A stretch of 64,000 nucleotides of DNA from Candidatus Chisholmbacteria bacterium RIFCSPHIGHO2_01_FULL_52_32 (lineage in GTDB: Bacteria > Patescibacteriota > Microgenomatia > UBA1400 > Chisholmbacteraceae): contig MHCJ01000003.1 of NCBI GenBank assembly GCA_001816585.1, forward strand, positions 778,681 through 842,680. The letters run 5' to 3'. Positions 15,549 through 64,000 of this stretch are shown one piece after another. How positions within the stretch are numbered: the first letter of the stretch is position 1; every line of letters begins with the position of its first letter. The position numbers were made by a program, and so were the translations under genes. The notes below the pieces were generated by a model. It saw only the letters and a list, made by a program, of their open reading frames with translations, made no database searches and was not told where the DNA came from.

Positions 15549-15561
15549 CTCTCTCCTTTGG

Positions 15562-19020: not shown

Positions 19021-19200
19021 TTTTTTCTTGCCAATCCTTCTTTTTCCAACTTCACCCGTTTTGCTCTTCAAAATACGCAAAAACCCGGGTTTCCCCAGGT
19101 TTTCTTCTTTTGTTTATTCCTTTTTTATGAGAAAGCGGATCGTTGTGTCAGATGGAATGTGCACGGTGGGTATTTTCAGCTTGATTGCTAACTGTTTTTT

Positions 19201-21019: not shown

Positions 21020-21745
21020 CTAGACCTTGATGAGGGCAGCAGTAATCACAGCGCGACGAAGGTATGTTCCTGGCGGCGTACAGGTAATGAGGCGGAGATA
21101 TTCGTTGTCATACGATTGCTCAAGAACCGTGAGGTTATCGGGTTTTACCTCTGTTTTGTCAATTACCCGATAGGTATAGGAAATTCCATCGAATTTTATG
21201 AGCACTTCGTCTCCAATTTCCATCGTTGGGACAAGGGAAAAGATCGCCTTGTAATTCTTCGGATTGAAGAATTGGGGGAGAATTGAATGACCGAAGATAA
21301 TGGTTGCGCCCAGCTCTCCGGGAAGCGCTGAGCCTTTATATTGGACAAGATTTTTAGAAAGGTCTTCTCCGCCAATGGCTACCGTCGCGTCAATGATATT
21401 GAATTTCGGTATCGATAGCGTGTAGTGGGTAATTTTGGATTCCCTTGCCGTGTTCGGTTTCGCATTGGGAAACCAGTCTGTGGGATTCAGCAATTCCTGG
21501 CTCGCTGAGCCAAACTGATCGGGCTCGCTACCCTTTACAGGTATGGGGGTAACAAACTGTTGGGGCTTGAGACTTGGAGCGGTAAATACCTCATATGAAA
21601 CAATTGGCCAAATGACACTTCCTATGATCATCGTCCCGGCAACCATGAGCCCTTTTGCTGCTATCTTGGGTCGACTCTGTCTCCTATCGCTTGATCCTTG
21701 TGCTTCTGGCTCGATCCTTCGTTTGACGTACCGATAGGGTTTCAT
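21020..21745 (-). CDS. Sortase family transpeptidase
   Basis: N-terminal membrane anchor; catalytic His (IIFGHSI), Cys in LRLITCTPPGT (TLXTC) and Arg (YLRRAV). Confidence 0.8.
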   Translation of the reverse strand: MKPYRYVKRRIEPEAQGSSDRRQSRPKIAAKGLMVAGTMIIGSVIWPIVSYEVFTAPSLKPQQFVTPIPVKGSEPDQFGSASQELLNPTDWFPNAKPNTARESKITHYTLSIPKFNIIDATVAIGGEDLSKNLVQYKGSALPGELGATIIFGHSILPQFFNPKNYKAIFSLVPTMEIGDEVLIKFDGISYTYRVIDKTEVKPDNLTVLEQSYDNEYLRLITCTPPGTYLRRAVITAALIKV

Positions 21746-49770: not shown

Positions 49771-50091
49771 ATGCCATCATCAGAACGATTGAAACGACAA
49801 CTCCTTGAATTTGGAATCCTGACTTTAATCACGGTCATCGCGTGGATTGGGTATGGCGTGTACTCCGTCCTCACACAACCTGTTCGCACCAATGTGAGTA
49901 ATGAGGAACTTCGTCCGTTGCCTCCACTTCTCACAACGGATCAAGTGGGCATTCTTCGGAACCGACTTAGCGTTGGCGATGATGTTCTTGAACAGTTTTC
50001 CCTTTCCCCTTCGGAAATTCCCAGCCCGGTCACTCTCCCCATTCCTCCCCCAACTTCTGCTTCACCTTCTGGTTTGCCATCGACACCTTAG
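49771..50091 (+). CDS. Small bitopic membrane protein with Pro-rich C-terminus (possible PilP-like pilus accessory protein)
   Basis: TM LEFGILTLITVIAWIGYGVY; Pro-rich tail PIPPPTSASPSGLPSTP; operon position after pilO. Confidence 0.35.
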   Translation: MPSSERLKRQLLEFGILTLITVIAWIGYGVYSVLTQPVRTNVSNEELRPLPPLLTTDQVGILRNRLSVGDDVLEQFSLSPSEIPSPVTLPIPPPTSASPSGLPSTP

Positions 50092-50155: not shown

Positions 50156-51571
50156 ATGCTTAAGAAACGTATTCCTACTATTCTCGGCATCCTCTTATTA
50201 CTGGTCGGGATCACCGCAGGGGTTTATCTGGTTGAACTTGGTCCTCAATCGCTTACGACCCGAGCCGGCCCAGAATATACCCCTTCTCATGTGGCGATTA
50301 CCAATATCACCGATCATTCCTTTACCGTTTCTTGGCTCACGGAAACTCTATCTTTGGGTTTCGTTCGGTATGGGACATCCGGTACTGCCCTAGACCTTTC
50401 GGCGCTTGATGATCGCACCGAGAGCGAGGAGAGCGATCAAACCTTTATAACCCATCATGCCACGGTTGAGAATCTGTCTCCGAACACGACCTACTATTTT
50501 GAAATTATTTCCGGAACAGGAACCACAAGTTTTACCAACAACGGGGAACCTTATACCGCAACCACGGCTTCAACCTTTTCGCCTTCTGTCTCCGCCGACA
50601 CCGCGTACGGCGCTGTTTACTTTCCCGACTTAAGCCCGGCTGAGGGTGCATTGGTTTATGTCACCCTTGAGGGAGGTTCTCCGCTGTCATCGCTTGTCGC
50701 ATCCACCGGAACGTGGGGCGTTCCGTTATCTTCAATGCGAACCGCAGACCTTGCCTCTACTATCCAGTATGATCCTTCCGAGACGACGCTTACGATTCGC
50801 GTTGTTGGGTCTGATGGGACTGAGGTTGCGGTTACGACGACCACCGGAAGTGATACTCCAGTCGATGACATCGTCCTTTCGAAGATGTCCGAGGAGGTAG
50901 CCGAGATCCAGGAGGATGCAACCAGTTCGGCGACGACCAGTCAGTTCTCTCTCACTCCCCTTGCGGATCTTCCAGAGACAGAAGGCAACAGCGTCACGGT
51001 TGTCGATCCTTCTGAGGGAGAGGCGATCAATACCCAACTGCCAGAATTCCACGGGAGCGGCCCTGCAGGCAGTTCGATTACCGTGATTGTGGAATCAGAG
51101 CAGCCTCTCCAGGCAACGGTGCAGGTGGATGCTCTGGGCCAATGGTCATGGTCTCCGTCTGTTCCCCTCGATCCCGGTGAACACCAGCTGACGATCCGTT
51201 GGCTGGATCAGAGTGGTATCGTGCGCTCAATATCCAGGAGTTTCGTCGTCTATGCTCAAGGAGAGAGTTCCCTTCCGGCGTTTGAGTCGACTCCGTCTGC
51301 AACAGCGACACCGACTCCAGTTGAGCTGGCCGCCATTACCCCTACCCCAATTCCGACAGCCAGACCCACAACGTCACCACAACCTACCGTTCCCCCGACG
51401 ATCACTGTCACGCCGACTCCGTCCCCGCGTCCGAGTCCTACTCCTGAAGCAACTACTCCCGCTCTTCCAGTACCAGGATCGGGAGCGTTTTCTGTCATTC
51501 TTATTCTCTCAGGGCTTTCTCTCACGGTTTCTGGAGCGCTCCTTTTGTCACGAAAATCCTTCCTTCTGTAA
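50156..51571 (+). CDS. Secreted cell-surface protein: N-terminal signal/anchor, FN3-like (purple-acid-phosphatase-N-type) domain, beta-sandwich/Ig-like domains, Pro/Thr-rich stalk, C-terminal LPxxG-type sorting signal (LPVPGSG + hydrophobic segment + RKSFLL)
   Basis: HSFTVSWLTE...RYGTS...TTYYFEI FN3 pattern; TPSATATPTPVELAAITPTPIPTARPTTSPQPTVPPTITVTPTPSPRPSPTP linker; tail motif, TM and basic end read directly. Confidence 0.6.
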   Translation: MLKKRIPTILGILLLLVGITAGVYLVELGPQSLTTRAGPEYTPSHVAITNITDHSFTVSWLTETLSLGFVRYGTSGTALDLSALDDRTESEESDQTFITHHATVENLSPNTTYYFEIISGTGTTSFTNNGEPYTATTASTFSPSVSADTAYGAVYFPDLSPAEGALVYVTLEGGSPLSSLVASTGTWGVPLSSMRTADLASTIQYDPSETTLTIRVVGSDGTEVAVTTTTGSDTPVDDIVLSKMSEEVAEIQEDATSSATTSQFSLTPLADLPETEGNSVTVVDPSEGEAINTQLPEFHGSGPAGSSITVIVESEQPLQATVQVDALGQWSWSPSVPLDPGEHQLTIRWLDQSGIVRSISRSFVVYAQGESSLPAFESTPSATATPTPVELAAITPTPIPTARPTTSPQPTVPPTITVTPTPSPRPSPTPEATTPALPVPGSGAFSVILILSGLSLTVSGALLLSRKSFLL

Positions 51572-51742
51572 ACGTTCCTTTTGTTTCGAACCTTCTCCTT
51601 TTTTCCCTGTTACAATACTGCTATCCACCTCATTGCTGGCGGCTCGGGCTCGCTTTGGTACTCACCCCGCGAGCTGTAAGCTTTAGGTTGGATGTTGTCT
51701 CTATGAGTAGGCGAACACGCGTAATATTTTAGGGAAAGCTCC

Positions 51743-53014
51743 ATGCGCGTTGCGATCGTTGGTGCGGGATTCACGGGATTAACTTCAGCGCTTCGGTTGT
51801 CGCAAGCGGGCGAATCAGTCTCGTTGTTTGAGGCGTCTGATGCTCCCGGCGGGCTTGCTTCCGGATTGAGTCGCCCTGGCTGGGAATGGCCCGTTGAGCG
51901 TTTCTATCATCATATCTTCACCAATGATGCGGCTATCATCCGACTGGCACATGAGGTTTCCTGGCCTCCATTATTTTTCCATCCTGAAACCTCTGTGTAT
52001 TTTGAAGACAGGATATATCCCTTTGATTCTGTGCTTGACCTTCTCCGCTTTCCGCATCTCTCTTTAGCCTCGAAAGTCAGAATGGGCGCCACTCTCGGGT
52101 TCCTGAAAGCCCTTCCTTTCTGGAAGCCTCTGGAACGGTTCACCGCCGATCGCTTCCTGCGTTTCACCATGGGAAGTGCCGGGTATACCACAATTTGGGA
52201 ACCGCTCCTGATCGGGAAATTTGGACCCTTCGCTCCATCTGTCAATGCGGCTTGGTTTTGGGCAAGGGTATTTAAACGGACGGCGAGGCTCGGATATTTT
52301 CGGCGCGGTTTCCAGGGTCTGGCTGATCAAATTGTCGACTCAATCACCAAGCGTGGGGGGCGGGTTTTGACCAACCATCCCGTCGAAAACGTATCTGTCT
52401 CAAAGAAAGGCTTTGTTGTCCGATCTGCTTCTCGGGAGCAGCTGTTTGACCGGGTCCTTTTTACCACCAGCACCTCTTTGTTTCTTCGTCTTTTTCCGGC
52501 GCTTCCGGATCGGTACCGGTCTGGTTTGCAACAGCTTGCCTCTGTCGATGCTTTAGTTTTGCTTTTGGTCCTTCGAAAGCCTTTTATGGAGGGCGTTTAT
52601 TGGCTCAATGTTCTTTCGCGGTCGCTCCCCTTTTTGGTTCTGATTGAGCATACCAATATGATCGATTCAAAGTACTACGGCGGGAACCACCTGCTTTACC
52701 TCGGGACCTATCTTCCGGCAACAGATCCGTTACTTCACCGTTCTCCCTCATTCCTTCGCCATCTGGCAATCCGGCAGCTTCTGGCAATTCGGAATGACTT
52801 TGATCCTTCCAATATCACCTCTTGTTTTGTCTTTCGGGGGCCGCAAGCACAACCGGTCGTTCCGGTTTCTTATTCATCCATTCTGCCTACCATTTCCACT
52901 CCCATTCCGAACCTCTATCTTGGAAATATGAATCTTGTCTATCCATGGGATCGGGGTACGAACTACGCCGTCGAACTCGGAGAAAAACTGGCTCGTGTTA
53001 TCCTTCACCCGTAG
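51743..53014 (+). CDS. FAD/NAD(P)-binding Rossmann oxidoreductase (amine-oxidase / CrtI / UDP-galactopyranose-mutase structural class)
   Basis: N-terminal VAIVGAGFTGL...LFEASDAPGG dinucleotide-binding motif; 423 aa. Confidence 0.7.
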   Translation: MRVAIVGAGFTGLTSALRLSQAGESVSLFEASDAPGGLASGLSRPGWEWPVERFYHHIFTNDAAIIRLAHEVSWPPLFFHPETSVYFEDRIYPFDSVLDLLRFPHLSLASKVRMGATLGFLKALPFWKPLERFTADRFLRFTMGSAGYTTIWEPLLIGKFGPFAPSVNAAWFWARVFKRTARLGYFRRGFQGLADQIVDSITKRGGRVLTNHPVENVSVSKKGFVVRSASREQLFDRVLFTTSTSLFLRLFPALPDRYRSGLQQLASVDALVLLLVLRKPFMEGVYWLNVLSRSLPFLVLIEHTNMIDSKYYGGNHLLYLGTYLPATDPLLHRSPSFLRHLAIRQLLAIRNDFDPSNITSCFVFRGPQAQPVVPVSYSSILPTISTPIPNLYLGNMNLVYPWDRGTNYAVELGEKLARVILHP

Positions 53015-53017
53015 TCC

Positions 53018-54934
53018 ATGAAACTTCAGCCGTCAATCTCTTCCACGAGTTTCGCGTTCAAGAACCTTACCCAACTGTCAGAAGGGGCGCGGAACAGATT
53101 CGTACAGGCTGCTATGGCCAGGCTAAAAGCATGGCGAGACTACCAAAGTGACAAGAAAAATCAAGACAAACCTTCTGCAGCCAAACGAATTTCTGTTATG
53201 CGGCCCGCTCGGGATAAACCGTTTGCGACCAAGAAATTTCCGTTCCGCGGATTCAATAATGACGCGAACGTCGAGTCTTCTTGGAAATTCTGGCTGACAC
53301 TTATCGTTCTGGTTGGCGGTTTTTTCCGTTTCGCAAAGCTCGATTGGGGGGACGGTTATTTCTTTCATCCTGATGAGTATCACATCAGCTCTGCCGTTGA
53401 TAAACTCTCTTTTCCCTTTCAGATGGATCCCCATTTCTATGCGTATGGTTCTTTCCCCATCTATCTTATCTATTTTGCACGGGCAATCATCTTCGCCCTA
53501 TTCCCAGATTATCTCTTTTCTCCCATACTGATAGGGAGATTCTTTTCCGCTTTCTTTTCAACCATTACAATTTTGTTTGTCTTTTTGAGCGCACGGATCA
53601 CGTTTCGAAACCATACAATCGCTCTGCTCCCTGCCCTTCTGGCGGCGTTAACCCCTGGACTTATCCAACAAGCGCATTTTGCCACCCCTGAGTCCAGTCT
53701 GACCTTTTTTATTTTTCTTTGCCTGTGGCTGTGGCTCTCTTATCTTCGCACCACTCGTCCGGTCTTTCTTTATGTTTCCGCCATCTCCCTTGGGTTGGCT
53801 GTAGCTTCGAAAATTTCCGCTGTTTCTCTGCTTCCCGTGTTTGTGTTCCTCCCTTTTTTCAAGCGCGTTTTATCCTCTTTTCGATCTGTTCTCGCGGGCA
53901 TAGCTCGCTTGGGTGTTTGTCTCCTTCTTGTCCTTGTTTCGTTCCTATCCGTCTTCCCCTTTGCTCTTTATTCCTTCAGCGCTTTTTCCTCTTCCCTTTC
54001 TTATGAGATCGGTGTCGGAAGAGGAGAGCCGATCGTCTTTTACACACGGCAGTTTATCGATACCGCTCCGCTCCTGTTTCATACTATGCATATCCTCCCC
54101 TATGCTCTTGGGCCGGCGATGCTTGGATTTGGAGGTGTCGGATTCCTGATTGTGGTTTCTGATATCTCTTTGCTGAGGTTTGGTACAAAGCGAGACAGGG
54201 TCCTCTGGGGTTTGCTTGTTATTGTTTTTCTGGCTTTGTTTCTCCCTCAGATATTCCTGTTTGCAAAATGGACACGGTTCATCGCGCCCTCGTTTGCCTT
54301 TTTTTCTTTGTTTTCGACCTATTTTTTCTATCGGATCAGTCCTTTCCTCAAGTCGCAAGCTTTGGGGGGGGTGATTCAATCGGTTGCCTGTCTCGTTCTC
54401 CTTCTGCCCACCATTTTTTGGGCGCTTGCGGTTTCTTCCGTCTATTTCCGGCGAGATGTCCGCGTCCTTGCGACAGCGTGGGTCGCCCAACAGCTTCCGC
54501 CACGTTCCTTCCTTCTTACCGAATCTGGCAACATCCTTGAAGTCCCTCTCTGGGGTGAGTTTCGCAAAGACGCATTTGACTTTTATGAGCTTGAACACCG
54601 AGCGGATCTTCAAAGACAGCTTCCGACTCTTCTTTCACAAGCGGATTATTTCATCGTCCAGAGCCGGCGCATCTTTTTCAACCATCAGCGGCTTCCCGCA
54701 CAATTTCCTTTTACATCTCGGTTTTATGATCTTCTCTTCTCCGGCTCCTTAGGATTCGAGTCAATGGCTACCTTTTCCTCCTATCCGAGGTTATCCTTCG
54801 GTCGGGCAACCATAGAAATACCTGATGAAGTAGCCGAAGAAACGTGGTCGGTTTTTGACCATCCGGTGGTACGGATTTTTCGGAAGAGCGTTTTATTCAC
54901 TGAGGCAGAATATGAAGAGCTTCTCACTGACTAA
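53018..54934 (+). CDS. Polytopic membrane protein, YYY/DUF2298-like putative GT-C glycosyltransferase (paralog 1) with loop-1 HPDE motif
   Basis: Basic N-terminal region then more than 10 TM helices; WGDGYFFHPDEY...FYAYGSFP motif; C-terminal soluble domain. Confidence 0.6.
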   Translation: MKLQPSISSTSFAFKNLTQLSEGARNRFVQAAMARLKAWRDYQSDKKNQDKPSAAKRISVMRPARDKPFATKKFPFRGFNNDANVESSWKFWLTLIVLVGGFFRFAKLDWGDGYFFHPDEYHISSAVDKLSFPFQMDPHFYAYGSFPIYLIYFARAIIFALFPDYLFSPILIGRFFSAFFSTITILFVFLSARITFRNHTIALLPALLAALTPGLIQQAHFATPESSLTFFIFLCLWLWLSYLRTTRPVFLYVSAISLGLAVASKISAVSLLPVFVFLPFFKRVLSSFRSVLAGIARLGVCLLLVLVSFLSVFPFALYSFSAFSSSLSYEIGVGRGEPIVFYTRQFIDTAPLLFHTMHILPYALGPAMLGFGGVGFLIVVSDISLLRFGTKRDRVLWGLLVIVFLALFLPQIFLFAKWTRFIAPSFAFFSLFSTYFFYRISPFLKSQALGGVIQSVACLVLLLPTIFWALAVSSVYFRRDVRVLATAWVAQQLPPRSFLLTESGNILEVPLWGEFRKDAFDFYELEHRADLQRQLPTLLSQADYFIVQSRRIFFNHQRLPAQFPFTSRFYDLLFSGSLGFESMATFSSYPRLSFGRATIEIPDEVAEETWSVFDHPVVRIFRKSVLFTEAEYEELLTD

Positions 54935-56624
54935 ATCCTTTCAAATCCCAATCATTCTCATTTTTCTCATTTCTATGATCTTCCGGCTCTATGGGCTTAA
55001 TTGGGACGGGGGACATCATCTCCATCCGGATGAACGGTTCTTAACGATGGTTACCCAAGACATTTATTGGCCTCGCTCTGTCTCTTCCTACCTTAACCCC
55101 GCACTATCTCCCTTGAATCCCTACAACGTTGGCTATCCGTTCTTTGTCTATGGCATGTTTCCGCTTATCCTGGTGAAATTCATTTCTGACCTGATCACCC
55201 TCGACCATTTCTCCTACAACAACATTACTTTGGTCGGTCGTGTGCTGGCTGCGACGTTTGATGTCGGAACACTCCTTGTCGTTTATCTCATCGCGCGACG
55301 CACTTTTTCTTCACGCATAGCCCTGTTTTCCGCCCTGTTCTACGGTCTATCTGTTTTGCCTATTCAACTCTCACATTTTTTTACCGTCGATCCGGTCATG
55401 GTCTTTTTCCTTGTTCTTTCCTTTTTTCTGTTGCTGATTTTCCTTGATGGCCGGCGGCAATGTTTTTCAAGTATTGGGCTTGGTATTTCATTCGGGCTTT
55501 CGGTCGCCAGCAAAATCTCCGCGGGTTATTTTCTTGCCATTATTGGACTTGGGTGGCTGGTCGTTTTTTTGAGAACGAGAAAGGTTCTTCCAACAGTTCT
55601 TGGCGCCGTTTTATTCGTCTTTTTTTCTTACAGCACCCTTCGTCTTGCGGATCCACGGATGTTCACCTCCCCCTCGTTTTTTGATCCACGACCTAATCCC
55701 CAATTCCTTGCCAACCTTCGCGAGCTTCAAGCGCTAAACAATCGTTTTGCGTTCTTTCCTCCTTCCATTCAATGGATTCCGACCAACCCTATCTGGTTTC
55801 CTTTTATGAATATTGTGCTTTGGGGATTTGGCCTGCCTTTAGGCATTTTCGTGGTCTTGGGTCTTGTTGCTTCCCTGCGGTTCTTTACTATGACTATCTT
55901 GTTGCCTCGCCGTATTCCCCGCATCCTGAAGCTTTGGCCAGAGCATCTAGGTCATTTGTTTCTGCTTACGTGGGTACTTTTTCTTTTCATTTCTCAAGGT
56001 ATCCAGTTTGTAAAAACTCTGCGGTATTTTTATCCCATTTATCCGTTTTTTGTGATCTTGGCTGCTTGGTTCTTTGACAACACGGTGGTTCGGCGATCTT
56101 CCCACATCGTTGTTATTGGGTTCTGCGTTATCTTTGTGATTTATCCAGTTTCTTTTCTTTCCATTTACTCCCGTCCCCACTCGCGCGTGATGGCTTCCGA
56201 ATGGATCTACGCCAATATTCCCACCGGGTCTGTTCTTTCATGCGAGCATTGGGATGACTGTTTGCCGCTCGGTGCTTCGGGGAGGTCCAATGCGCTTTAT
56301 CAGACTGAAGTGCTGCCCCTTTTTGATCCTGATACCCCCGAAAAGTGGCGGAAGATCAATCGTCAACTTGAGAATGTGGATTATCTGATTCTCTCCTCTA
56401 ATCGTGTCTGGGGTTCCATTCCGAAGGTACCGGAGAAATTCCCTCTTACCAGTCAGTTTTATCAGGATCTGTTTGCCGGGAAGTTATATTTCAAGAAGGT
56501 TTTTGATCTCACGTCTTACCCTACCATTCCCCTTCTCAATATTCCCATTCCCGATGATTCTTCAGAGGAAGCGTTCACCGTCTATGATCATCCCCGGGTG
56601 ATCATCTTTCAAAGAATGCAATAA
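54912..56624 (+). CDS. Polytopic membrane protein, YYY/DUF2298-like putative GT-C glycosyltransferase (paralog 2)
   Basis: WDGGHHLHPDERF...FFVYGMFP motif pair as in paralog 1; ORF-track start 54855 is TTG, ATG at 54912 overlaps the paralog 1 stop by 23 nt. Confidence 0.6.
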   Translation: MKSFSLTKSFQIPIILIFLISMIFRLYGLNWDGGHHLHPDERFLTMVTQDIYWPRSVSSYLNPALSPLNPYNVGYPFFVYGMFPLILVKFISDLITLDHFSYNNITLVGRVLAATFDVGTLLVVYLIARRTFSSRIALFSALFYGLSVLPIQLSHFFTVDPVMVFFLVLSFFLLLIFLDGRRQCFSSIGLGISFGLSVASKISAGYFLAIIGLGWLVVFLRTRKVLPTVLGAVLFVFFSYSTLRLADPRMFTSPSFFDPRPNPQFLANLRELQALNNRFAFFPPSIQWIPTNPIWFPFMNIVLWGFGLPLGIFVVLGLVASLRFFTMTILLPRRIPRILKLWPEHLGHLFLLTWVLFLFISQGIQFVKTLRYFYPIYPFFVILAAWFFDNTVVRRSSHIVVIGFCVIFVIYPVSFLSIYSRPHSRVMASEWIYANIPTGSVLSCEHWDDCLPLGASGRSNALYQTEVLPLFDPDTPEKWRKINRQLENVDYLILSSNRVWGSIPKVPEKFPLTSQFYQDLFAGKLYFKKVFDLTSYPTIPLLNIPIPDDSSEEAFTVYDHPRVIIFQRMQ

Positions 56625-56637
56625 CCTGTTATTCAGA

Positions 56638-57759
56638 TTATGTAGTCTCCATGAGTGATTCTAATGCGTCCATTGTTCGTTGGTAGTCGAACTTCTTTTG
56701 GATCTCTTTTTTTGGCCTGATGAATCTTTTTCTATTGGTGATAACCTCAGCGATGGCTTTTGCCAAGGCTTTGGTGTTTCTCGGTGGAACTAGCTTTCCC
56801 ATTCCCGTGAGAGATATCGGTATCCTCACTCCGGGAAGATCGGTTGCGACCACAGGACATCCGTGCATCATCGCCTCAACTTGGACCATCCCGAATGCCT
56901 CCAGACGTTCGGTAGACGGAAGTACCAGCACATCAATTGTCTTGTAGAAGCTCGCCATTTCCGCTTGGCTGAGCGGGCCAAGGAATGTCAGGTTCTGCTT
57001 CCATTTTTCCAAGTAGCCCCCGAGCAAACTTTTGTAGTCCACGCCGATCACCTCCTTAAACGGCCCCGCGAAAATCAGCTGTACGTCTCTCCCAAGACTT
57101 TTTCTGAGGGAGGGTAGGGTTTGGAGCAAATGATGGAGCCCTTTTTCCCTGGATACTCTTCCGGCAAATCCGATCTTCACCTTTGCATCCTGCCAGTTTC
57201 CGGATAGATTGGCCGGGGTTTCCAGTTTGACAGGGGGGAGAATGTAGACAACCTTCTTTTTGAATAGTGATAGGAATCGCGAATGTCTGCCGTAATCCTC
57301 GGTGTATGAAATGATGGCGTCTGCAAGGGCGCCGGCAATGAATTGAGTAATCCAAGTTGCAATTTCTGAAATATGATTGACAAGACCCGGCCAACCGGAG
57401 AGGTCGCAATGGTAGGTCAGAATCACATTCTTTTTTAAGAGTTTGGCAAGGATTACCGTTATGAACGATTCGAATTGAGGAAGATGGCAGTTTACAATCT
57501 GCGATTTTCTCAGTGCTTTGTAGACTGCGATAGGAAAAGTCGGCATGACGGGCCCTCTTCCAATACAGACGGGAGTCCAGATCCTTGTGATGAGAACTCC
57601 CCGTATGATCTCTCTGGCTGGCAATTTTTTTCTGTACTTTGCAGTCAGGACTTCGACGGAGTGACTGCGATTCACCATCTCCTCGGCGAAGCGTTTGGCA
57701 TAGATTGTCAGGCCACTGATGTTTGGGTGGTAGTAACTGATTCCGATGAGGATCTTCAT
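56638..57759 (-). CDS. Glycosyltransferase family 4 (GT-B fold)
   Basis: MKILIGISYY.. N-terminal GT4 domain; C-terminal ..EAFGMVQVEAMMHGCPVVATD.. (EX7E-like) motif. Confidence 0.8.
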   Translation of the reverse strand: MKILIGISYYHPNISGLTIYAKRFAEEMVNRSHSVEVLTAKYRKKLPAREIIRGVLITRIWTPVCIGRGPVMPTFPIAVYKALRKSQIVNCHLPQFESFITVILAKLLKKNVILTYHCDLSGWPGLVNHISEIATWITQFIAGALADAIISYTEDYGRHSRFLSLFKKKVVYILPPVKLETPANLSGNWQDAKVKIGFAGRVSREKGLHHLLQTLPSLRKSLGRDVQLIFAGPFKEVIGVDYKSLLGGYLEKWKQNLTFLGPLSQAEMASFYKTIDVLVLPSTERLEAFGMVQVEAMMHGCPVVATDLPGVRIPISLTGMGKLVPPRNTKALAKAIAEVITNRKRFIRPKKEIQKKFDYQRTMDALESLMETT

Positions 57760-58307
57760 GGTGCTTGGATCAGCGATCTTACTGAGCGGGTACCGTTCCA
57801 ATGGATGATTCGAAGTTTCGGCAGTCTCGTGCGCAGGTAGTCTATCTGCGCTTCATCGTCATCGATGAACATCTCAAGCTTCAGCTTGCGGATCATGCTC
57901 TCTTTGAATCGATGCGGTTGTCTATTATTCAAATTCACATACACCCCCTGGAAGAGCCCAGCACAGTCATAGGTTTGCAGCCAATCTTTCGTTCTTCCTC
58001 TTAAAAAGCTGTATCTCCCTGAAATCACGTAGAATTCGTATGTTCCGGCGATTGTCCGGATATCCCTCAGATTATTCCAAATCGGCTGGCGGAGCAGTGG
58101 GTGATGGCTCAACCATCGAATGGAGCGCTCAAGAGCAGAGCTCGGATATCGGTAGGCGAGTTCTGTTTTAGTGCGTTCGCGGACCAGCCGGGTCAGCGCC
58201 CAGTTGGGAAGCCCTGGTGGTTTATCGATGATCACGCCGTCGAGATCCAGTCCGATACGGACCGGTCTTCGCTTGGTCGGTCGTTTCGAAAGCTTTTTTC
58301 CTTCCAT
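57756..58307 (-). CDS. HAD-like hydrolase (putative phosphatase/nucleotidase)
   Basis: Motif I IGLDLDGVIID (DxDGV); stop overlaps the GT4 start (ATGA). Confidence 0.4.
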   Translation of the reverse strand: MEGKKLSKRPTKRRPVRIGLDLDGVIIDKPPGLPNWALTRLVRERTKTELAYRYPSSALERSIRWLSHHPLLRQPIWNNLRDIRTIAGTYEFYVISGRYSFLRGRTKDWLQTYDCAGLFQGVYVNLNNRQPHRFKESMIRKLKLEMFIDDDEAQIDYLRTRLPKLRIIHWNGTRSVRSLIQAP

Positions 58308-58464
58308 CGTTCCTGCCTATTATACGAAGAAAGAGTGTTTTTCCCTACTTCCCGGCTGTCTGTTTCTGGTGATTGTCTGAGGTAACTGAGGCGTCCTCTT
58401 GTATTCATCTCTCTTCTTGTCACTCTGTATCTGATAGGATTGATGCGTGTTCGGGAGTATCGCT

Positions 58465-60570
58465 ATGCCTGAATTATTGAGCGTCTTTTTCTGGTGGGGT
58501 TTGATCTCTTTCCTTGGTGCCTTGGCTTTTCCGTTTACTTTTTGGTTGTTCCGTCGCTTTTGGGATGGGGGATGGGCACTGGCAAAGATCCTCGGTTTGG
58601 TCCTTTTAACCTATTGGACGTGGATTGTTGGGAGCTTGCGGATCCTTCCTTTTGGGCCGCTTTCTTTGTGGCTTGGCGTTGGTCTGCTTGGTTGGTTTTC
58701 TTTCCAAGTCTTCATGAGATCGATTGAGCCGATACGGACGTTTGTTCGCGACCATTTGTCCCTGATCTTGTTTGAAGAACTCCTGTTTGGTGTCGGTTTG
58801 CTTGGCTGGGCATGGATTCGGGCACATCAGCCGGATATTGAGGGTCTTGAAAAATTCATGGATTTTGGATTTGTCAACTCGATCCTGCGCTCCCGTTGGT
58901 TTCCCCCCTTGGACATGTGGCTTTCGGGCAATACCATCAACTACTACTACTTCGGCCATTTGGTGACGGCCGTTCTGACGAAGCTTTCCGGCTTTCCCTC
59001 TTTTCGGACCTACAATTTGATGATTGCCGCTCTTTTTTCCTTGACGCTTGTTTCCTCCTTCTCCATCGGAGGAGCACTTACCCGCACGTTTCTTCGCATC
59101 CGCGATGCGAAATCTTCCAGAGTGCTTGTATTTTTAGGAGCCATTATTTCTGCGGTGACCCTGACCTTGGCCGGAAATCTCCATACCATCATCACCGTTG
59201 TCAACAAAGGGGCTTCTTCGTACTGGTACCCTGACGCTACCCGCTATATCCCTTTCACGATCCACGAATTCCCGCTCTACAGTTTTGTTGTAGCTGACCT
59301 GCATGGCCATGTTTCAAATATCCCATTTGTTCTCCTCATGGTAGGGCTCATCTTCAGTTTTGGGATTGAATTGTCTTTGAAACGGTTTTCCCTTCCTTTC
59401 TCCTCTTTCTTGCTCCGCTTACTGGCCATCGGGTTGACGACTGCCGTACTTTTCATGACGAACTCCCTGGATGCGCCGATTTACTTCTTGCTCTTTATTG
59501 TCGCTTTAGTGAGTTCGGGTCCGCGTCTTTCTTTTTTACGACGCTCTGCCTCAATCATCTTCGTTTCGTTTTACGTCGTGCTGATTTCTGCTTTTCTTTT
59601 TTCTCTCCCCTTTTCTCTCCGGTTTCATCCGTTTGCTCAAGGCATTGCGTTGGTGACTACTCGCTCATCTCCCCGTCAGCTTGGCGTCCTTTGGGGGTTT
59701 TTTCTCCTTGTTGCCTTTGTTTTTCTCTCTTCCTTTATCCGTCATCCCAACCGATATTTTCCAGATCGCCCTTCCGGTCCGGCGCGCCGGTTTCTCCTGA
59801 GTCTTCTCGGAGTTTCCTTGATTCTGGTTGTCCTTCCCGAGGTCATCTATATCAAGGATATCTACGTTGCTGAGTACTATCGAGCAAATACCATGTTTAA
59901 ACTGGCGTATCAGGCCTTCATCATGATGGCCCTTGTTACCGGGCCAGTTTTTTCCGGTTTGCTCTGGAATCTTTGGACAGCGAGGGGGCGAGGGCTTCGT
60001 TTCTCCCTGCTTGCGGTCGTTTTCGTGTTTCTCTTTGGCCTCGGCAGTGTCGTCTCCTATCCTTACTTTGCAATACGCTCTTACTACAGTTCCCTCAAGC
60101 ATTTCCGCGGACTTGACGGTCTTGCCTGGCTCTCCGCAAAGTACCCAAATGATGCCCAAGCCATAGACTGGTTACGGGAGAACGTCGAGGGGCAACCCGT
60201 TATTCTCGAAGCTGTGGGAGAAAGTTATACGAACTTCGCCCGGGTTTCGGCGAACACGGGCCTGCCGACAATCCTGGGCTGGCGGGTTCATGAGTGGTTA
60301 TGGCGAGGGAGTTTTGACGAAGCCGGTCTTCGAACAAACGTCGTTTCAACGATGTACACGTCAGTCGATTCGCTTGAAGTTTGTCGACTTATCGATCGCT
60401 ATGACGTGGACTATGTCTTTGTGGGAACCCTGGAAAGGAGTCAGTATCCCACGCTTTCCGAAGCGGTTTTTGAGCGACTTGGTACGTCCGTTTTTACTTC
60501 TGGAGATACCCGAGTATACCGGATCCGCAAGCCGTGTCGATCCCTGTCTTTTCATCTTCATCGGGCCTGA
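58465..60570 (+). CDS. YYY-motif (DUF2298 / chlor_Arch_YYY-type) polytopic membrane protein, putative GT-C glycosyltransferase (paralog 3)
   Basis: Hallmark NYYYFGH motif, about 14 TM helices, C-terminal soluble domain; ORF-track start 58447 is GTG, ATG at 58465 has a GGGAG SD. Confidence 0.65.
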   Translation: MPELLSVFFWWGLISFLGALAFPFTFWLFRRFWDGGWALAKILGLVLLTYWTWIVGSLRILPFGPLSLWLGVGLLGWFSFQVFMRSIEPIRTFVRDHLSLILFEELLFGVGLLGWAWIRAHQPDIEGLEKFMDFGFVNSILRSRWFPPLDMWLSGNTINYYYFGHLVTAVLTKLSGFPSFRTYNLMIAALFSLTLVSSFSIGGALTRTFLRIRDAKSSRVLVFLGAIISAVTLTLAGNLHTIITVVNKGASSYWYPDATRYIPFTIHEFPLYSFVVADLHGHVSNIPFVLLMVGLIFSFGIELSLKRFSLPFSSFLLRLLAIGLTTAVLFMTNSLDAPIYFLLFIVALVSSGPRLSFLRRSASIIFVSFYVVLISAFLFSLPFSLRFHPFAQGIALVTTRSSPRQLGVLWGFFLLVAFVFLSSFIRHPNRYFPDRPSGPARRFLLSLLGVSLILVVLPEVIYIKDIYVAEYYRANTMFKLAYQAFIMMALVTGPVFSGLLWNLWTARGRGLRFSLLAVVFVFLFGLGSVVSYPYFAIRSYYSSLKHFRGLDGLAWLSAKYPNDAQAIDWLRENVEGQPVILEAVGESYTNFARVSANTGLPTILGWRVHEWLWRGSFDEAGLRTNVVSTMYTSVDSLEVCRLIDRYDVDYVFVGTLERSQYPTLSEAVFERLGTSVFTSGDTRVYRIRKPCRSLSFHLHRA

Positions 60571-61631
60571 TAGAAGAACCTCTCAATATAGGTGTGTATC
60601 TCCTCCCAACCATTGCGGCCGATGAGCACCCATTGTCCATTGTAGTTTGCCAGTGGCGGATGAATGAGAAGTCCCGGCTTTCCCGCTTCTTTATCTTCTT
60701 CTTCGATTACCCCATGACGGATATGTTCAGCCTGTGTTTTGAGGGCGAGTTTGGCCAGACTGACGTATTCCGTTTCCGAAAGATCGGTCTTTACTGTCCC
60801 TGAGAATGTCTGCATGAGCTGCCTGACCTTCGTTGGAGAAAGGAGTGTATCCAGAGACAATATCTTGTTTTTAAAGGCAATGAGTACCTCTCGCTGGCGG
60901 CGGGAGCGGGCAAAATCCGTGCCTTCTTCTCCTTCGGCATTGCGCGACCTGACATATTTTAAGGCTCTCTCCCCGCTCAATTCTTGGAGTCCTTTGTCGA
61001 AGTGAAGGTGTTCGTAGCGTAAATCCTCTGGCTCAGCCTCCTCCATTCCGGGAATGGGATATTTGTAGTCGTCAAAGCTCCGGGGAACATCAATCTCAAT
61101 TCCCCCCACCAAATCGATCGCGGTTTTGAACCCGTCAAAGTCGATTGCCACCGCGTAATGAATGGGTTCTCCTATCACTTCCTCGGCAGCTGATTTTGCT
61201 AAGATGAGTCCACCTCCCTGCCTCTTTTGCTCTCCGAAGAAATAGGTGGCGTTGATCTTTGTTTTGAGTGAGTCGATCCAAATGTCTCTGGGGATCGAGA
61301 GCAAGGCGGTGTCAGCTGATTTGAGATCAATGGATAACACGATGATCGAGTCCGTTAACTCCGGTCCTTCGTGATTTGCCCCACCCATCCCGAGAAGTAA
61401 GATGTTGGTCCTGCCTTTGGTTGTTTGCAACACCGCTTGCGGGTCCCTGACGAGTGAGAAGGCTGCTTGGGGTCCTCGGAGAAGACTTCTTGCTACGGTA
61501 AGCAGGGGCCGTACTGCTTGGACGATTGAAATCACCGCGATCGCTCCGATTGTTACCAGCAGGACAGCTCGTACGACACTGCGATGTTTCGTTAAGCGAC
61601 GTTTGATTTTTGCGAGGAAGTGGTAATCCAT
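60558..61631 (-). CDS. LytR-CpsA-Psr (LCP) family cell-envelope glycopolymer ligase
   Basis: N-terminal TM, ..NILLLGMGG...SIIVLSID...LLSIPRD.. LCP core motifs. Confidence 0.8.
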   Translation of the reverse strand: MDYHFLAKIKRRLTKHRSVVRAVLLVTIGAIAVISIVQAVRPLLTVARSLLRGPQAAFSLVRDPQAVLQTTKGRTNILLLGMGGANHEGPELTDSIIVLSIDLKSADTALLSIPRDIWIDSLKTKINATYFFGEQKRQGGGLILAKSAAEEVIGEPIHYAVAIDFDGFKTAIDLVGGIEIDVPRSFDDYKYPIPGMEEAEPEDLRYEHLHFDKGLQELSGERALKYVRSRNAEGEEGTDFARSRRQREVLIAFKNKILSLDTLLSPTKVRQLMQTFSGTVKTDLSETEYVSLAKLALKTQAEHIRHGVIEEEDKEAGKPGLLIHPPLANYNGQWVLIGRNGWEEIHTYIERFFYQAR

Positions 61632-62363
61632 TTACGAAGAATTGTTTGATGCAATTCGGTTTGCCGCAATGACCATTCTGATCCACTCAGGCGCATTGAG
61701 GCTTGCCGATCCAGGGAGCACTCCGTCAATTCCTGGATCATCAAGGAATCTTCCAATGTTGGCTGCTTTGACACTTCCGCCGTAGATCACCGCTATGGCT
61801 TGGGTTTCATCTCTGATTGACGCAATCATCCGTTTTACTTCTTTAAGGGGGGCAGGTGTTCCTTTCCCGATTGGACCGAGTTGCTGGCTGATTGCTTCCG
61901 GGGGCTCGTACATAAAGATCGAATTCTTCCGGGCTTCTTCATCGAGAGCGATGACCTGTTGCCGCCAGTTATCTCGATCCACCGAAACGATCGGGGTTAA
62001 GCCATTGTCGAGTGCTTGGAGCACCTTTTGGGCGACCACCACTGCTGATTCGTGAAAGTAGCGTCTCCGTTCGGAATGTCCGACGATCACGTACTGTGTA
62101 AGTCCTCGCACCATTCGTGCGGTGATCTCGCCGGTGTAGGCTCCGTCTGCGTAGGGTGAAATGTCCTGGCAGCCCAGGAGAAGTCCAGGAAACTCTTGTC
62201 TCAGAAGGTTCAGGTGGATGAAAGGTGGACAGAGGATGACTTTTAACCCTTCCTCGATCCTGAGGTTTTCCCTCTTTACCTGTTTAATCCAGGTTTGCGC
62301 TTCTTCTTCAGTCTTGTTGGCTTTCCAGTTCCCGATGAGGTATTTCATAACGGCAAGTACCAT
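61632..62363 (-). CDS. tpiA: Triosephosphate isomerase
   Basis: YLIGNWKAN, VIVGHSERR, YEPP.AI motifs. Confidence 0.8.
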   Translation of the reverse strand: MVLAVMKYLIGNWKANKTEEEAQTWIKQVKRENLRIEEGLKVILCPPFIHLNLLRQEFPGLLLGCQDISPYADGAYTGEITARMVRGLTQYVIVGHSERRRYFHESAVVVAQKVLQALDNGLTPIVSVDRDNWRQQVIALDEEARKNSIFMYEPPEAISQQLGPIGKGTPAPLKEVKRMIASIRDETQAIAVIYGGSVKAANIGRFLDDPGIDGVLPGSASLNAPEWIRMVIAANRIASNNSS

Positions 62364-62423
62364 TGCGGAGATCTCATGCGAAATACCCGTTTCTTTCGCC
62401 TGTTTCCGTGATACGATTCTACC

Positions 62424-64000
62424 ATGGCCTCAGGGTTACTCAAAGCGCTCAACCGCGAACAGCGGGCGGCGGTGGCTTTTGAGGGTGGACCGCTGCTTAT
62501 TCTTGCGGGGGCGGGGAGCGGAAAGACCCGTGCGATTGTGTACCGGGTGGCCTATCTTATGAAAGAGCGAGGCGTTGATCCTTCCTCTATCCTTCTGACG
62601 ACGTTTACCAATAAAGCAGCTTCAGAAATGCGTGAACGGCTGGTGAAACTCGTCGGCACTGCTCCCCCCTTCACGGGAACGTTTCATTCGCTGTGCGCAA
62701 AGATCCTGCGCGAACACGGAACGTTGGTCGGGATTTCTCCGTCTTACGTGATTTACGATGAGAACGATCAGGAAGACGTTGTGAAGCAGGCGCTTACAAG
62801 CCTTGATCTTTCCGCGCGAGACTACAATCCCCGGTCGGTGCTGGGAGCGATCAGCTCAGCGAAAAATGAGCTCATCGGTCCAACCGCATATCCGCAATAT
62901 GCCCGCGGCCATTGGCAGGAAACTGTATCGCGAATTTACCTTGCGTACCAGAAACTTCTGCGACAGAGCGAGGCTTTGGATTTTGACGATCTTCTGATGG
63001 AAACCGTCCGACTGTTTCAGAAGCAACCGGCGCTTCTTTCTCAGATCCAACATCGATTCCGTCATATCCTCGTCGATGAATATCAAGATACCAATCATGC
63101 GCAATACGTTTTGACCAAGCTCCTGGCCGGAAAGTGGCGCAATCTCTGCTGCGTGGGTGATTTTTCACAGTCAATTTACATGTGGAGGGGTGCGGATTTT
63201 CGAAACCTCATGAAACTTCAGCAGGATTTTCCCGATCTTACCGTCGTCAATCTCGAACAGAACTACCGGTCAACCCAGATCATATTGGATGCAGCATCGG
63301 GAGTGATCTCCCATAACAAAACCCATCCGATCCTCCAGTTGTGGACAACGCGGAAGGGCGGAGAAAAGATCGTGGTGTATGAATCCCGCGACGAAAAAGA
63401 GGAGGCAGGCTTTGTTCTTGCAATAGTCTCTTCGCTTTCCCGCTCCAATCCTTCGTATTCCTTCAAAGATTTTGCGGTTCTCTATCGAACCAATGCCCAA
63501 TCGCGCGCTCTTGAAGAGGCGTTCATTCGGGCCGGCGTTCCGTATGTTCTGGTCGGAGGAACGCGGTTTTATGAACGGAGAGAGATCAAGGACTGCTTGG
63601 CTCTGCTGCGGGTTCTTTATAATCCGAAGGACCTCGTCAGTTATCGAAGGATAGAAAAGTTGGGGAAGGGAAGGTTGAATACATTCCTTACCTTTGCCAA
63701 AGTGTTTGAGGACAAGGAAAAGTATGCCTCTGCATCTACCCTTGATCTTTTGGATCAGGTCTTGGAGGCTACCGGCTATCTTGACCTGTATAATCCTAAG
63801 GATGAGGAGGGCCTTTCCCGGCTTGAGAACATCAAGGAGTTGCGTAGCGTTGCCGCGGAATTCCCATCAATCAGTGAGTTTTTAGAAAACGTCGCGCTTG
63901 TCGAGCAAGAACATCTTCCCGACCATCCGGCGAATTCTCAGAAGAAGCGGAATGCCGTCACCTTTATGACCCTTCATGCAGCAAAAGGCTTGGAATTTCC
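62424..64000 (+). CDS. uvrD: ATP-dependent DNA helicase UvrD/PcrA family (partial, continues past window end)
   Basis: LNREQRAAV...AGAGSGKTR Walker A; later ..VPYVLVGGTRFYERREIKD.. motif V region, in frame to 64000. Confidence 0.9.
   Translation, partial: MASGLLKALNREQRAAVAFEGGPLLILAGAGSGKTRAIVYRVAYLMKERGVDPSSILLTTFTNKAASEMRERLVKLVGTAPPFTGTFHSLCAKILREHGTLVGISPSYVIYDENDQEDVVKQALTSLDLSARDYNPRSVLGAISSAKNELIGPTAYPQYARGHWQETVSRIYLAYQKLLRQSEALDFDDLLMETVRLFQKQPALLSQIQHRFRHILVDEYQDTNHAQYVLTKLLAGKWRNLCCVGDFSQSIYMWRGADFRNLMKLQQDFPDLTVVNLEQNYRSTQIILDAASGVISHNKTHPILQLWTTRKGGEKIVVYESRDEKEEAGFVLAIVSSLSRSNPSYSFKDFAVLYRTNAQSRALEEAFIRAGVPYVLVGGTRFYERREIKDCLALLRVLYNPKDLVSYRRIEKLGKGRLNTFLTFAKVFEDKEKYASASTLDLLDQVLEATGYLDLYNPKDEEGLSRLENIKELRSVAAEFPSISEFLENVALVEQEHLPDHPANSQKKRNAVTFMTLHAAKGLEF

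Follow-up and report, generated by a model that had tools for sequence, protein, structure and literature searches.

Two described pathways come closest to the gene cluster treated here, which occupies positions 51743-61631 of a 64,000-nucleotide stretch of DNA (the window) from Candidatus Chisholmbacteria bacterium RIFCSPHIGHO2_01_FULL_52_32 (GenBank assembly GCA_001816585.1, contig MHCJ01000003.1), a tiny uncultivated groundwater bacterium of the Microgenomates, in the Patescibacteria or Candidate Phyla Radiation (CPR). The mycobacterial set for decaprenyl-phosphate arabinose (DPA) and arabinan comprises the UbiA protein Rv3806c, the phosphatase Rv3807c, the FAD oxidase DprE1, the reductase DprE2, the type C glycosyltransferases (GT-Cs) AftA and EmbCAB, and the ligase Lcp1. 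Three-component systems add alpha-pentofuranoses outside the membrane by means of a PPPRS enzyme with a HAD phosphatase domain, a flippase, a GT-C and, optionally, an epimerase of the short-chain dehydrogenase/reductase (SDR) type or DprE1/E2, and more elaborate variants with several GT-Cs or epimerases have been noted (PMC11127046). In Citrobacter youngae O1/O2 the components are the PPPRS-PRP protein ORF15, the MATE flippase ORF14, the GT-C ORF12 of family GT136 and the SDR epimerase ORF13 (Kelly et al., 2024, PMC11127046). A preliminary description of the window, made from its letters alone, had held that our cluster is not a textbook system, which was an overstatement given these close published analogues.

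In our judgement the region probably represents a module, conserved in Microgenomates, which glycosylates envelope molecules outside the membrane with sugars carried on polyprenyl phosphate. The proposal of a cell-surface glycosylation locus built on GT-C-type enzymes that use lipid-linked donors is borne out by predicted fold, residue conservation and synteny, and there is good support for its general mechanism, in which GT-Cs glycosylate outside the cytoplasm from such donors; the donor, the acceptor, the substrate of the flavoenzyme and the protein that flips the donor are what we infer. The genes concerned are the following:

50156..51571, + strand: surface protein (Pfam fn3/Pur_ac_phosph_N and Big_13; Pro/Thr stalk and C-terminal anchor)
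51743..53014, + strand: FAD oxidoreductase, the leading gene of the cluster (Amino_oxidase; NCBIfam PRK07233)
53018..54934, + strand: P1, GT-C paralog 1 (Pfam PMT_2 and PMT above cut-offs)
54912..56624, + strand, reading frame open from TTG 54855: P2, GT-C paralog 2 (Pfam PMT_2 and PMT above cut-offs)
56638..57759, - strand, reading frame extending to TTG 57801: cytoplasmic sugar-nucleotide glycosyltransferase of family GT4, GT-B fold (Pfam)
57756..58307, - strand: HAD-like cytoplasmic protein of 183 aa (motifs conserved in homologues)
58465..60570, + strand, reading frame open from GTG 58447: P3, DUF2298/TIGR03662 'Chlor_Arch_YYY' protein (Pfam, TIGRFAM)
60558..61631, - strand: LytR-CpsA-Psr (LCP) ligase of glycopolymers to peptidoglycan (LytR_cpsA_psr, TIGR00350)
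61632..62363, - strand: triose-phosphate isomerase, TIM (Pfam TIM, 1.5e-50)

In the pathway that we propose, the FAD oxidoreductase, the GT4 and the HAD-like phosphatase would work on the cytoplasmic side of the membrane, where they would synthesise or modify a lipid-linked sugar donor; this would be flipped to the outer side, and P1, P2 and the DUF2298 protein, whose predicted build recalls oligosaccharyltransferases (OSTs) or arabinosyltransferases, would transfer its sugar or sugars to an extracytoplasmic acceptor. This acceptor may be the Pro/Thr-rich, sortase-type wall protein encoded upstream, a wall glycopolymer of the Wzx/Wzy/TagA kind, or both, and the LCP ligase would then attach the glycopolymer to peptidoglycan. 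By analogy with sister lineages that carry UbiA or SDR genes, a pentofuranose carried on polyprenyl phosphate might be the donor, and the flavoenzyme might modify a lipid-linked intermediate.

All the reading frames were found where the preliminary description had placed them, as was the 3-nt gap between the flavoenzyme's stop codon, which ends at 53014, and the ATG of P1 at 53018. In the public gene calls the HAD-like stop and the GT4 start overlap by 4 nt. Both pairs, flavoenzyme with GT-C and HAD-like protein with GT4, are translationally coupled; in three other loci (L003, L004, L005) the flavoenzyme gene overlaps the next one. The DUF2298 and LCP genes are convergent, with a 13-nt overlap. 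The start codons of the three membrane proteins are uncertain. P1 bears, at window 53018-53270, a basic N-terminal extension of about 85 residues that does not align with P2, and since its homologues measure 545-577 aa its true start may lie downstream. For P2 the ATG at 54912, with a GAGG 8 nt upstream, is the most likely start; a public call from 54975 would remove the first transmembrane helix. The DUF2298 frame opens at GTG 58447 (707 aa), and public calls begin at ATG 58465.

GT-C-type membrane proteins of the cluster

P1 and P2 exceed the Pfam cut-offs of PMT_2 (37.5 and 47.4 bits against 26.1) and of PMT (34.2 and 34.7 bits against 22.7), with E-values of 3.6e-9 and 2.5e-8 for P1, and they align with each other end to end (29% identity, E 1e-39, BLASTP). 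The window had been said to encode three paralogous YYY/DUF2298 proteins: P1 and P2 are indeed paralogs of each other, but only P3 is a DUF2298 protein, and it was discarded as their sequence paralog because BLASTP finds no similarity. When the P1/P2 family and DUF2298 are compared profile to profile, the match is marginal (hhalign, probability 42%, E 2.6e-4), collinear and running from the last helices into the beginning of the external domain. The strings FYAYGSFP, FFVYGMFP and NYYYFGH are present in the three sequences as reported. The Y-x-Y-G region that they were thought to share does not stand: the strict motif occurs only in P1, P2 reading FVYG and P3 YYYFG, and what was taken for a common signature is therefore a loose aromatic-Tyr-Gly resemblance.

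HPDE fared better. In a scan for both motifs over the 18,023 residues of the window's proteins it occurs twice, in P1 and in P2, and it is kept in 98-100% of the 49 homologues in which conservation was measured. The motif residues are conserved in the orthologues in both the P1/P2 and the DUF2298 alignments. Other near-invariant residues of the P1/P2 family, namely YG, a Q..H pair, a Lys and an Arg, sit where the loop and phosphate-binding residues of GT-Cs typically do, and a C-terminal extracytoplasmic domain is conserved. Because the family profile finds ArnT (5ezm, 2e-8), AglB (7e-6) and STT3A (3e-5) in the PDB, we take P1 and P2 to be ArnT/PMT/OST-like GT-C enzymes.

They resemble PMT (GT39) and ArnT (GT83) in their Pfam matches, in the retrieval of ArnT by the profile and in the position of the acidic HPDE after the first transmembrane helix, which recalls the DE motif of PMT; the adjacency of a gene for a Pro/Thr-rich surface protein adds to the likeness. 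However, the full GT39 architecture was not found in the Pfam scan: P1 and P2 cover only positions 81-235 of the 245 in the PMT model and have neither a PMT_4TMC nor a MIR domain. They have no NCBIfam ArnT match, they carry a distinct conserved C-terminal domain, and there is no GT2 polyprenyl-phosphate mannose synthase in the window or the next 8 kb.

One of these two PMT-like paralogs could conceivably flip a lipid-linked sugar instead of transferring it, a role that we consider unlikely. Proteins of the TIGR03663 (Agl23) family tend to share genomes and neighbourhood with TIGR03662 YYY proteins, and the window has the same pairing, a PMT-like membrane protein encoded together with a DUF2298/YYY protein. 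P1 and P2 do match TIGR03663 weakly (17.4 and 17.5 bits, E about 2e-3), a related paralog family in other loci matches it at 8e-11, and the cluster lacks a dedicated flippase gene. The archaeal, PMT-like Agl23 acts with dolichyl-phosphate (Dol-P)-hexose in surface glycosylation; it has been connected with the flipping of Dol-P-hexose, and in proteoliposomes it moves lipid-linked oligosaccharide across the membrane (PMC11182771). Yet the scores lie far under the cut-off of 126.25 bits, so that P1 and P2 are not members of a family described as flippase-associated rather than as transferases, and both keep the acidic loop motif and the conserved external C-terminal domain expected of transferases.

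We also observed a membrane protein family of about 546 aa, polytopic and without any Pfam or NCBIfam match, which lies directly downstream of the flavoenzyme in 14 loci (L009, L016, L033, L035, L037, L040, L043, L051, L055, L057, L061, L066, L073, L074; one gene further away in L051 and L066). It matches a PMT_2-like profile over 71 columns (hhalign, 80% probability, E 1.4e-5) and may be another undescribed GT-C-like family.

P3 is a YYY/DUF2298 protein, as had been recognised from its motif: it matches DUF2298 (PF10060) at 5e-95 and 320 bits against a cut-off of 27.8, and TIGR03662 at 1e-155 and 520 bits against 300. An alignment of 51 homologues (43-58% identity) served for conservation and as the basis of an AlphaFold model. 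Over these sequences N165-Y-Y-Y-F-G-H171 is invariant or nearly so, and so are E135, K136, D139, T271-I-H-E274, D284-L-H286, E465, D471 and the string W-x-V-H-E-W-L-W-R at 612-620. The model is a confident one (pLDDT 89.3, pTM 0.93). From the helix pattern and the positive-inside rule, we expect some 14 helices and a C-terminal domain outside the membrane, with acidic and histidine residues in the external loops; the invariant E135, D139, T271-I-H-E274 and D284-x-H286 all fall in predicted external loops. The helix arrangement of the model is that of a polytopic GT-C, and its C-terminal globular domain is of the OST type, AglB-like by predicted fold.

Two structure searches with this model agree independently. 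Foldseek returns STT3A, DPY19, PglB, AftA, AglB and Pmt4 in its top 11, with the best TM-scores (0.46-0.54) for AftA; in the other search AftD, ALG9, AftB, PglB and DPY19 are among the matches, and the alignment with AftA spans 474 residues. The fold check that the preliminary description had called for thus places the YYY protein among GT-C enzymes and not among transporters. By its modelled fold it is a GT-C enzyme, most like OSTs and arabinosyltransferases, and by sequence a member of neither. Together, Pfam, PDB-profile and fold searches put all three membrane proteins in GT-C families, and a transporter identity of P1, P2 and P3 was ruled out.

The comparison with GT66 OSTs (STT3/AglB/PglB) is instructive. 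STT3B, STT3A and PglB rank high for the DUF2298 structure, and its T-I-H-E and D-x-H sequences recall two motifs described in AglB, TIXE and the second DXD, Asp-His-His (PMC8342417), for which the AglB residues to be compared would be E360 and D161/H163. In DUF2298, however, T-I-H-E shares a predicted loop with D-x-H instead of occupying a separate later one; the STT3 Pfam model does not match, and the WWDYG motif is absent from the C-terminal domain (residues 540-707). PDB sequence searches, whether with the single sequence or with the profile, returned nothing meaningful and no OST chain. The family is a large one, with 8,704 clusters at 50% identity (E <= 1e-3), seen in CPR bacteria and in Chloroflexota loci. 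In keeping with the statement that YYY proteins have no assigned function, our literature search found DUF2298 mentioned in two papers only, neither of which deals with its function, and it yielded no paper linking GT-C enzymes with Patescibacteria. Entries in GenBank identical to our flavoenzyme and DUF2298 proteins come from metagenome-assembled genomes (MAGs) of Chisholmbacteria and are labelled only 'hypothetical protein', 'YYY membrane protein' or 'amine oxidase domain-containing protein'.

Conservation of the cluster in Microgenomates

Conservation of the neighbourhood was assessed with a profile of the flavoenzyme, which was run against one genome per species and gave 80 loci whose reading frames were called and clustered; counts refer to 32 non-Chloroflexi loci with enough flank and to 22 Chloroflexota loci. 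Among close and more distant DUF2298 homologues (43-58% identity) the order kept is PilN, PilO, a small PT-rich protein, the surface protein, the flavoenzyme, one to three GT-Cs, the GT4 and HAD-like genes, DUF2298, then LCP and TIM on the minus strand, and UvrD. The neighbours are thus co-conserved across Microgenomates. A GT-C-type gene lies within three genes of the flavoenzyme in 27/32 non-Chloroflexi loci and 0/22 Chloroflexota loci; the corresponding figures are 25/32 and 2/22 for DUF2298, 22/32 and 0/22 for the surface protein, 15/32 and 0/22 for LCP, 14/32 and 0/22 for the HAD-like gene, and 9/32 and 1/22 for an SDR epimerase. The proportions are reversed for a flippase-like TIGR00374/LPG_synthase_TM protein (1/32 against 14/22) and for an NDP-sugar dehydrogenase (0/32 against 11/22). 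As a side observation, the order in Chloroflexota is a flippase-like gene, the flavoenzyme and then the dehydrogenase, of the UDP-glucose type (for example L026 8991-11272 and L080 7669-10515).

Such counts would mean little if gene order were simply slow to change in reduced genomes, in which case adjacency would not speak of shared function and the GT4 and HAD-like proteins could, for example, make a soluble glycoside via a sugar phosphate in the manner of sucrose-phosphate synthase and phosphatase. The unrelated TIM, UvrD, PilN/O and MurJ genes are equally syntenic here, pairs of GT4 and HAD enzymes are classical for compatible-solute synthesis, and a scan of the region for promoter and terminator consensus sequences, which found no excess over the shuffled expectation, is uninformative. 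The GT4 itself, whose identity was confirmed (Glycos_transf_1 4.8e-28, Glyco_transf_4 8.7e-14, Pfam), has no NCBIfam equivalog at cut-off, and a weak match to sucrose-phosphate synthase was found among the NCBIfam models.

The Gottesmanbacteria-type loci (L007, L033, L035, L057, L061, L073, L088, L089) tell against this explanation. Their gene order is different and PilN/O, the surface protein, LCP and TIM are absent, yet they keep the flavoenzyme, several GT-Cs, the GT4, the HAD-like gene and DUF2298 together. They therefore allow a functional core to be separated from mere conserved gene order, and they single out LCP and the surface protein as the weakest links. The core that resists rearrangement in Microgenomates is the flavoenzyme, one or more GT-Cs, DUF2298 and the HAD-like protein, with or without the GT4. 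Moreover, the HAD-like gene also occurs without the GT4, between an SDR epimerase and DUF2298, and the two translational couplings described above do not suit a fortuitous neighbourhood. Adjacency without shared function is, for these reasons, quite improbable. Two of the same loci hold a small membrane-anchored protein with a single Big_1 Ig-like domain whose gene overlaps the flavoenzyme start by 4 nt (L088 7015-7521, L089 6440-6865); we dismissed it as a homologue of the surface protein, its sequence being unrelated and without a Pro/Thr stalk.

The HAD-like protein had been called a HAD-type phosphatase. What stands are the motifs, which in 17 homologues are conserved in the order HAD I-IV: D21 and D23 of an N-terminal D-x-D, an S/T segment ending in the invariant R98, the invariant K135, and D150 within DDD or EDN. 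What falls short is the family assignment. The window protein has no Pfam or NCBIfam match and no PDB sequence match, and its homologues match Acid_phosphat_B, HAD_2, HAD_PNKP, LNS2 and Put_Phosphatase weakly and below threshold (in 4+2+2+2+1 members). The HAD call is reasonable, if sub-threshold, and the protein is a candidate phosphatase of a sugar phosphate or of a lipid-linked sugar phosphate; its gene adjoins GT4, SDR epimerase or DUF2298 genes.

In passing, several records of the survey bear labels that look wrong. Metagenomic sequences filed as 'uncultured Gammaproteobacteria', 'Nevskiaceae' or 'Bathyarchaeia' (L014, L025, L029, L031, L033, L053, L073 and the protein matches P0059 and P0115) have typical Microgenomates loci with PilN/O, the glycosylation cluster, LCP and FemAB.

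The donor sugar and the flavoenzyme

The link to pentofuranoses comes from sister lineages. In five loci, all Gottesmanbacteria-like (L007, L022, L032, L088, L089), a UbiA gene stands beside the flavoenzyme; for L007 and L022 its best NCBIfam match is decaprenyl-phosphate phosphoribosyltransferase (1.6e-60, 204.7 bits, just short of the cut-off of 207). Among the best 120 matches to this UbiA protein all are at least 60% identical, and those with a source name come from Gottesmanbacteria or Microgenomates. In about nine Levybacteria-type loci the gene that separates the GT-Cs from the HAD-like gene encodes an SDR epimerase. Taken across lineages, the clusters jointly hold a UbiA phosphoribosyltransferase, a phosphatase, a FAD oxidase, an SDR epimerase/reductase (Levybacteria-type) and several GT-Cs, a set that by analogy would recall the logic of mycobacterial arabinan synthesis and of the three-component pentofuranose systems.

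The Citrobacter system shares with these clusters a GT-C with an extra extracytoplasmic domain, a HAD-type phosphatase step, the SDR epimerase of the Levybacteria type and the UbiA-family phosphoribosyltransferase of the Gottesmanbacteria type. It differs from the window's cluster in that the latter has neither PPPRS nor MATE flippase, that its phosphatase is a separate small protein, HAD-like at motif level only, that its three GT-Cs belong to the PMT_2-like and DUF2298 families and not to GT136, and that it is led by a flavoenzyme of amine-oxidase fold with no counterpart in Citrobacter. With the mycobacterial set the window has in common a FAD oxidase, a phosphatase, several GT-Cs and a nearby LCP ligase; in addition, the sister-locus UbiA best matches models of the Rv3806c type and the DUF2298 structure aligns with AftA. 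Unlike that set, however, its flavoenzyme is not homologous to DprE1, its phosphatase is unrelated to Rv3807c, no Emb or Aft family domain is detected by sequence, and it comes from a CPR bacterium whose genome is reduced.

The leading gene was confirmed as a Rossmann FAD oxidoreductase (Amino_oxidase, 4e-24). Besides that model only DAO and NAD_binding_8 match in Pfam, and over residues 1-421 the protein matches PRK07233 (NF005560) at 6e-115 and 384.5 bits against a cut-off of 252. Its model (pLDDT 95.6) has the amine-oxidase/protoporphyrinogen-oxidase/phytoene-desaturase fold, with PPOX, plant phytoene desaturase (best TM-score 0.84) and monoamine or L-amino-acid oxidases as the nearest structures at 13-19% identity (Foldseek); sequence and PDB-profile searches give generic superfamily matches only. 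Since it has neither signal peptide nor membrane segment, it should act on the cytoplasmic side. On the strength of that generic similarity we rejected the flavoenzyme as a DprE1 homologue, as UDP-galactopyranose mutase and as an orthologue of protoporphyrinogen oxidase or of a carotenoid desaturase. DprE1 has the vanillyl-alcohol-oxidase-type FAD_binding_4 fold, and any DprE1-like role of our enzyme would be by analogy only. The family is common to Microgenomates and Chloroflexota.

A different substrate has to be weighed here. The PRK07233 enzyme could saturate or desaturate the polyprenyl carrier, giving a dolichol-like or differently modified lipid that the GT-Cs would prefer, with no oxidation of a sugar. 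The best TM match to phytoene desaturase points in that direction, as do the next NCBIfam matches, which are the isoprenoid enzymes HpnE, CrtD and CrtI. The flavoenzyme also adjoins a polyprenyl-phosphate-using UbiA in some loci and a lipid-flippase-like protein in Chloroflexota, and the window's cluster has no partner reductase. But there is no specific similarity to a known polyprenol reductase or geranylgeranyl reductase, nothing beyond superfamily-level similarity ties it to solved structures, and the SDR epimerase of Levybacteria-type loci fits epimerisation of a sugar by an oxidase/reductase couple equally well. We regard an action on the carrier lipid as possible, if doubtful.

Several observations weigh against our explanation of the region as a polyprenyl-phosphate-dependent glycosylation module and, more specifically, against its pentofuranose version. 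In Chloroflexota the flavoenzyme is not beside GT-Cs (0/22) and DUF2298 is present in only 2/22 loci. Adjacency alone is a weak argument, especially for the surface protein and LCP, because the synteny of PilN/O, TIM and UvrD is conserved in these small genomes too. A polyprenyl-phosphate sugar synthase, for which the preliminary description had advised a search, was not found in the 64-kb window and 8 kb beyond, be it a GT2 of the DPM1/GtrB type or a UbiA-type PPPRS. With no UbiA, SDR or GT2 synthase within 72 kb for the window's cluster, the donor sugar of Chisholmbacteria is an extrapolation, and the pentofuranose idea draws on other lineages only, UbiA being confined to the five Gottesmanbacteria-like loci. 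The fold of the flavoenzyme differs from that of DprE1, and no partner reductase accompanies it in the window's cluster. Finally, the HAD assignment of the 183-aa protein is sub-threshold. No MATE or SMR flippase occurs in the window's cluster; the MurJ gene at 46395-48062 is a probable lipid II flippase.

Possible acceptors and the envelope of ultra-small bacteria

The protein encoded upstream of the flavoenzyme does have the Pro/Thr-rich stalk ascribed to it, followed by a C-terminal hydrophobic anchor. It begins with a membrane or signal segment, continues with an fn3/Pur_ac_phosph_N and a Big_13 Ig-like domain and then the stalk, and ends (window 51440-51571) in LPVPG, a hydrophobic stretch and a basic tail. 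In 33 homologues the C-terminus has LPPTG, LPVTG, LPKTG or LPVPG-like motifs at the same place, and a sortase gene is present at window 21020-21745. For these reasons it is probably anchored to the wall by sortase, through a sorting motif that in the Chisholmbacteria lineage would be a variant one. Pro/Thr-rich surface proteins are the classical type of PMT acceptor in Actinobacteria. The surface-protein gene stands directly upstream of the flavoenzyme in 22/32 non-Chloroflexi loci, and it is this adjacency alone that ties the protein to the GT-Cs; as a target of O-glycosylation it is plausible. For a related system, a preprint describes the Pseudomonas aeruginosa GT-C TfpW as O-glycosylating pilin Ser/Thr with D-arabinofuranose, an indication that such a pathway can modify Ser/Thr of a surface protein (bioRxiv 10.1101/2020.04.19.049825).

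Two further proteins deserve mention in this context. Directly upstream of the sortase gene, at window 21742-24024 on the minus strand, is a 760-aa protein without Pfam family, with a very acidic, Glu-rich centre and one predicted membrane helix. After PilO, at window 49771-50091, lies a 106-aa protein of no database family, whose N-terminus holds a single membrane helix and whose tail is rich in Pro and Ser, the positional counterpart of the small PT-rich family that follows PilO in 25 related loci.

The acceptor might instead be a wall polymer: on the outer side of the membrane the GT-Cs would assemble or modify a polysaccharide linked to peptidoglycan, like the Emb/Aft enzymes of arabinogalactan or GT136 in O-antigen side chains, and LCP would ligate the product. 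The analogues in the literature work on polymers (PMC11127046), an LCP gene, which in the window converges on DUF2298, is found in 15/32 loci, and genes for a Wzx-GT4 fusion, Wzy_C, WecG/TagA and GT4s lie 2-10 kb beyond the LCP gene here, as just downstream in relatives. This last stretch was read on the JGI metagenome contig L090, which is 100% identical to window 51632-64000 and runs 8.4 kb past the window's end. After UvrD (L090 1-8363) it encodes a fusion of GT4 with Wzx (Polysacc_synt), two more GT4s, a DUF4330-like protein, Wzy_C, a WecG/TagA-type GT26 and a DUF6311 membrane protein, which by their families look like a Wzx/Wzy pathway for a wall glycopolymer. This cluster is a more obvious source of the LCP substrate than the glycosylation cluster, and the GT-Cs could decorate its polymer after export.

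The LCP ligase itself was identified correctly (LytR_cpsA_psr, PF03816, 1.7e-30, 106.6 bits against 24.6; TIGR00350, 92 bits against 62.3) and has a hydrophobic segment at residues 20-40 that would serve as membrane anchor. Its inclusion in the glycosylation locus holds as far as synteny goes, but no other gene is linked less securely: LCP shares its transcription with triose-phosphate isomerase and is missing from the rearranged Gottesmanbacteria clusters. We observed that TIM stands immediately upstream of LCP with a 0-nt gap; 18 related loci show this conserved, if curious, pairing of a glycolytic gene with one for a wall ligase. The weakness of the LCP link speaks against a polymer as acceptor, and so do the matches of P1 and P2 to the Pfam models of protein mannosyltransferases and the resemblance of DUF2298 to OSTs that modify proteins, including its AglB-type C-terminal domain. 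We hold the polymer tentatively as a fully possible acceptor, if somewhat short of an even chance; it is compatible with our explanation of the module, from which it differs solely in the acceptor. The remainder of the window encodes core machinery, with ribosomal proteins, EF-Tu/G, FtsK, DnaK/J, MurJ, sortase and PilN/PilO; two large reading frames at 11835-19080, left out of the family scan, are presumably rpoB/C.

A considerable part of bacterial diversity belongs to the CPR, and hardly any work exists on the envelopes of these bacteria and on the surfaces with which they attach to hosts. The cluster described here is widespread in Microgenomates and joins two sizeable families without function, DUF2298 and the PRK07233 flavoenzyme, the latter also common in Chloroflexota. 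A bolder version of our explanation would have DUF2298 as an unrecognised OST/arabinosyltransferase-like branch of GT-Cs, PRK07233 as a new enzyme on polyprenyl-phosphate-linked intermediates (a non-homologous counterpart of DprE1, or a reductase or desaturase of the carrier lipid) and the whole as an envelope glycosylation pathway of ultra-small bacteria, possibly O-glycosylating sortase-anchored Pro/Thr-rich proteins; that all of this holds jointly is rather unlikely. The flavoenzyme family occurs in Chloroflexota lineages which we take to have cultured members, one MAG of the survey (L079) being assigned to the presumably cultured species Litorilinea aerophila, and its function is for that reason open to experimental testing. 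Both families gain a testable biochemical context, that of lipid-linked extracytoplasmic glycosylation related to arabinan or pentofuranose pathways. Should the flavoenzyme replace chemistry of the DprE1 type, or remodel the carrier lipid, it would represent a new enzyme activity in glycan biosynthesis.

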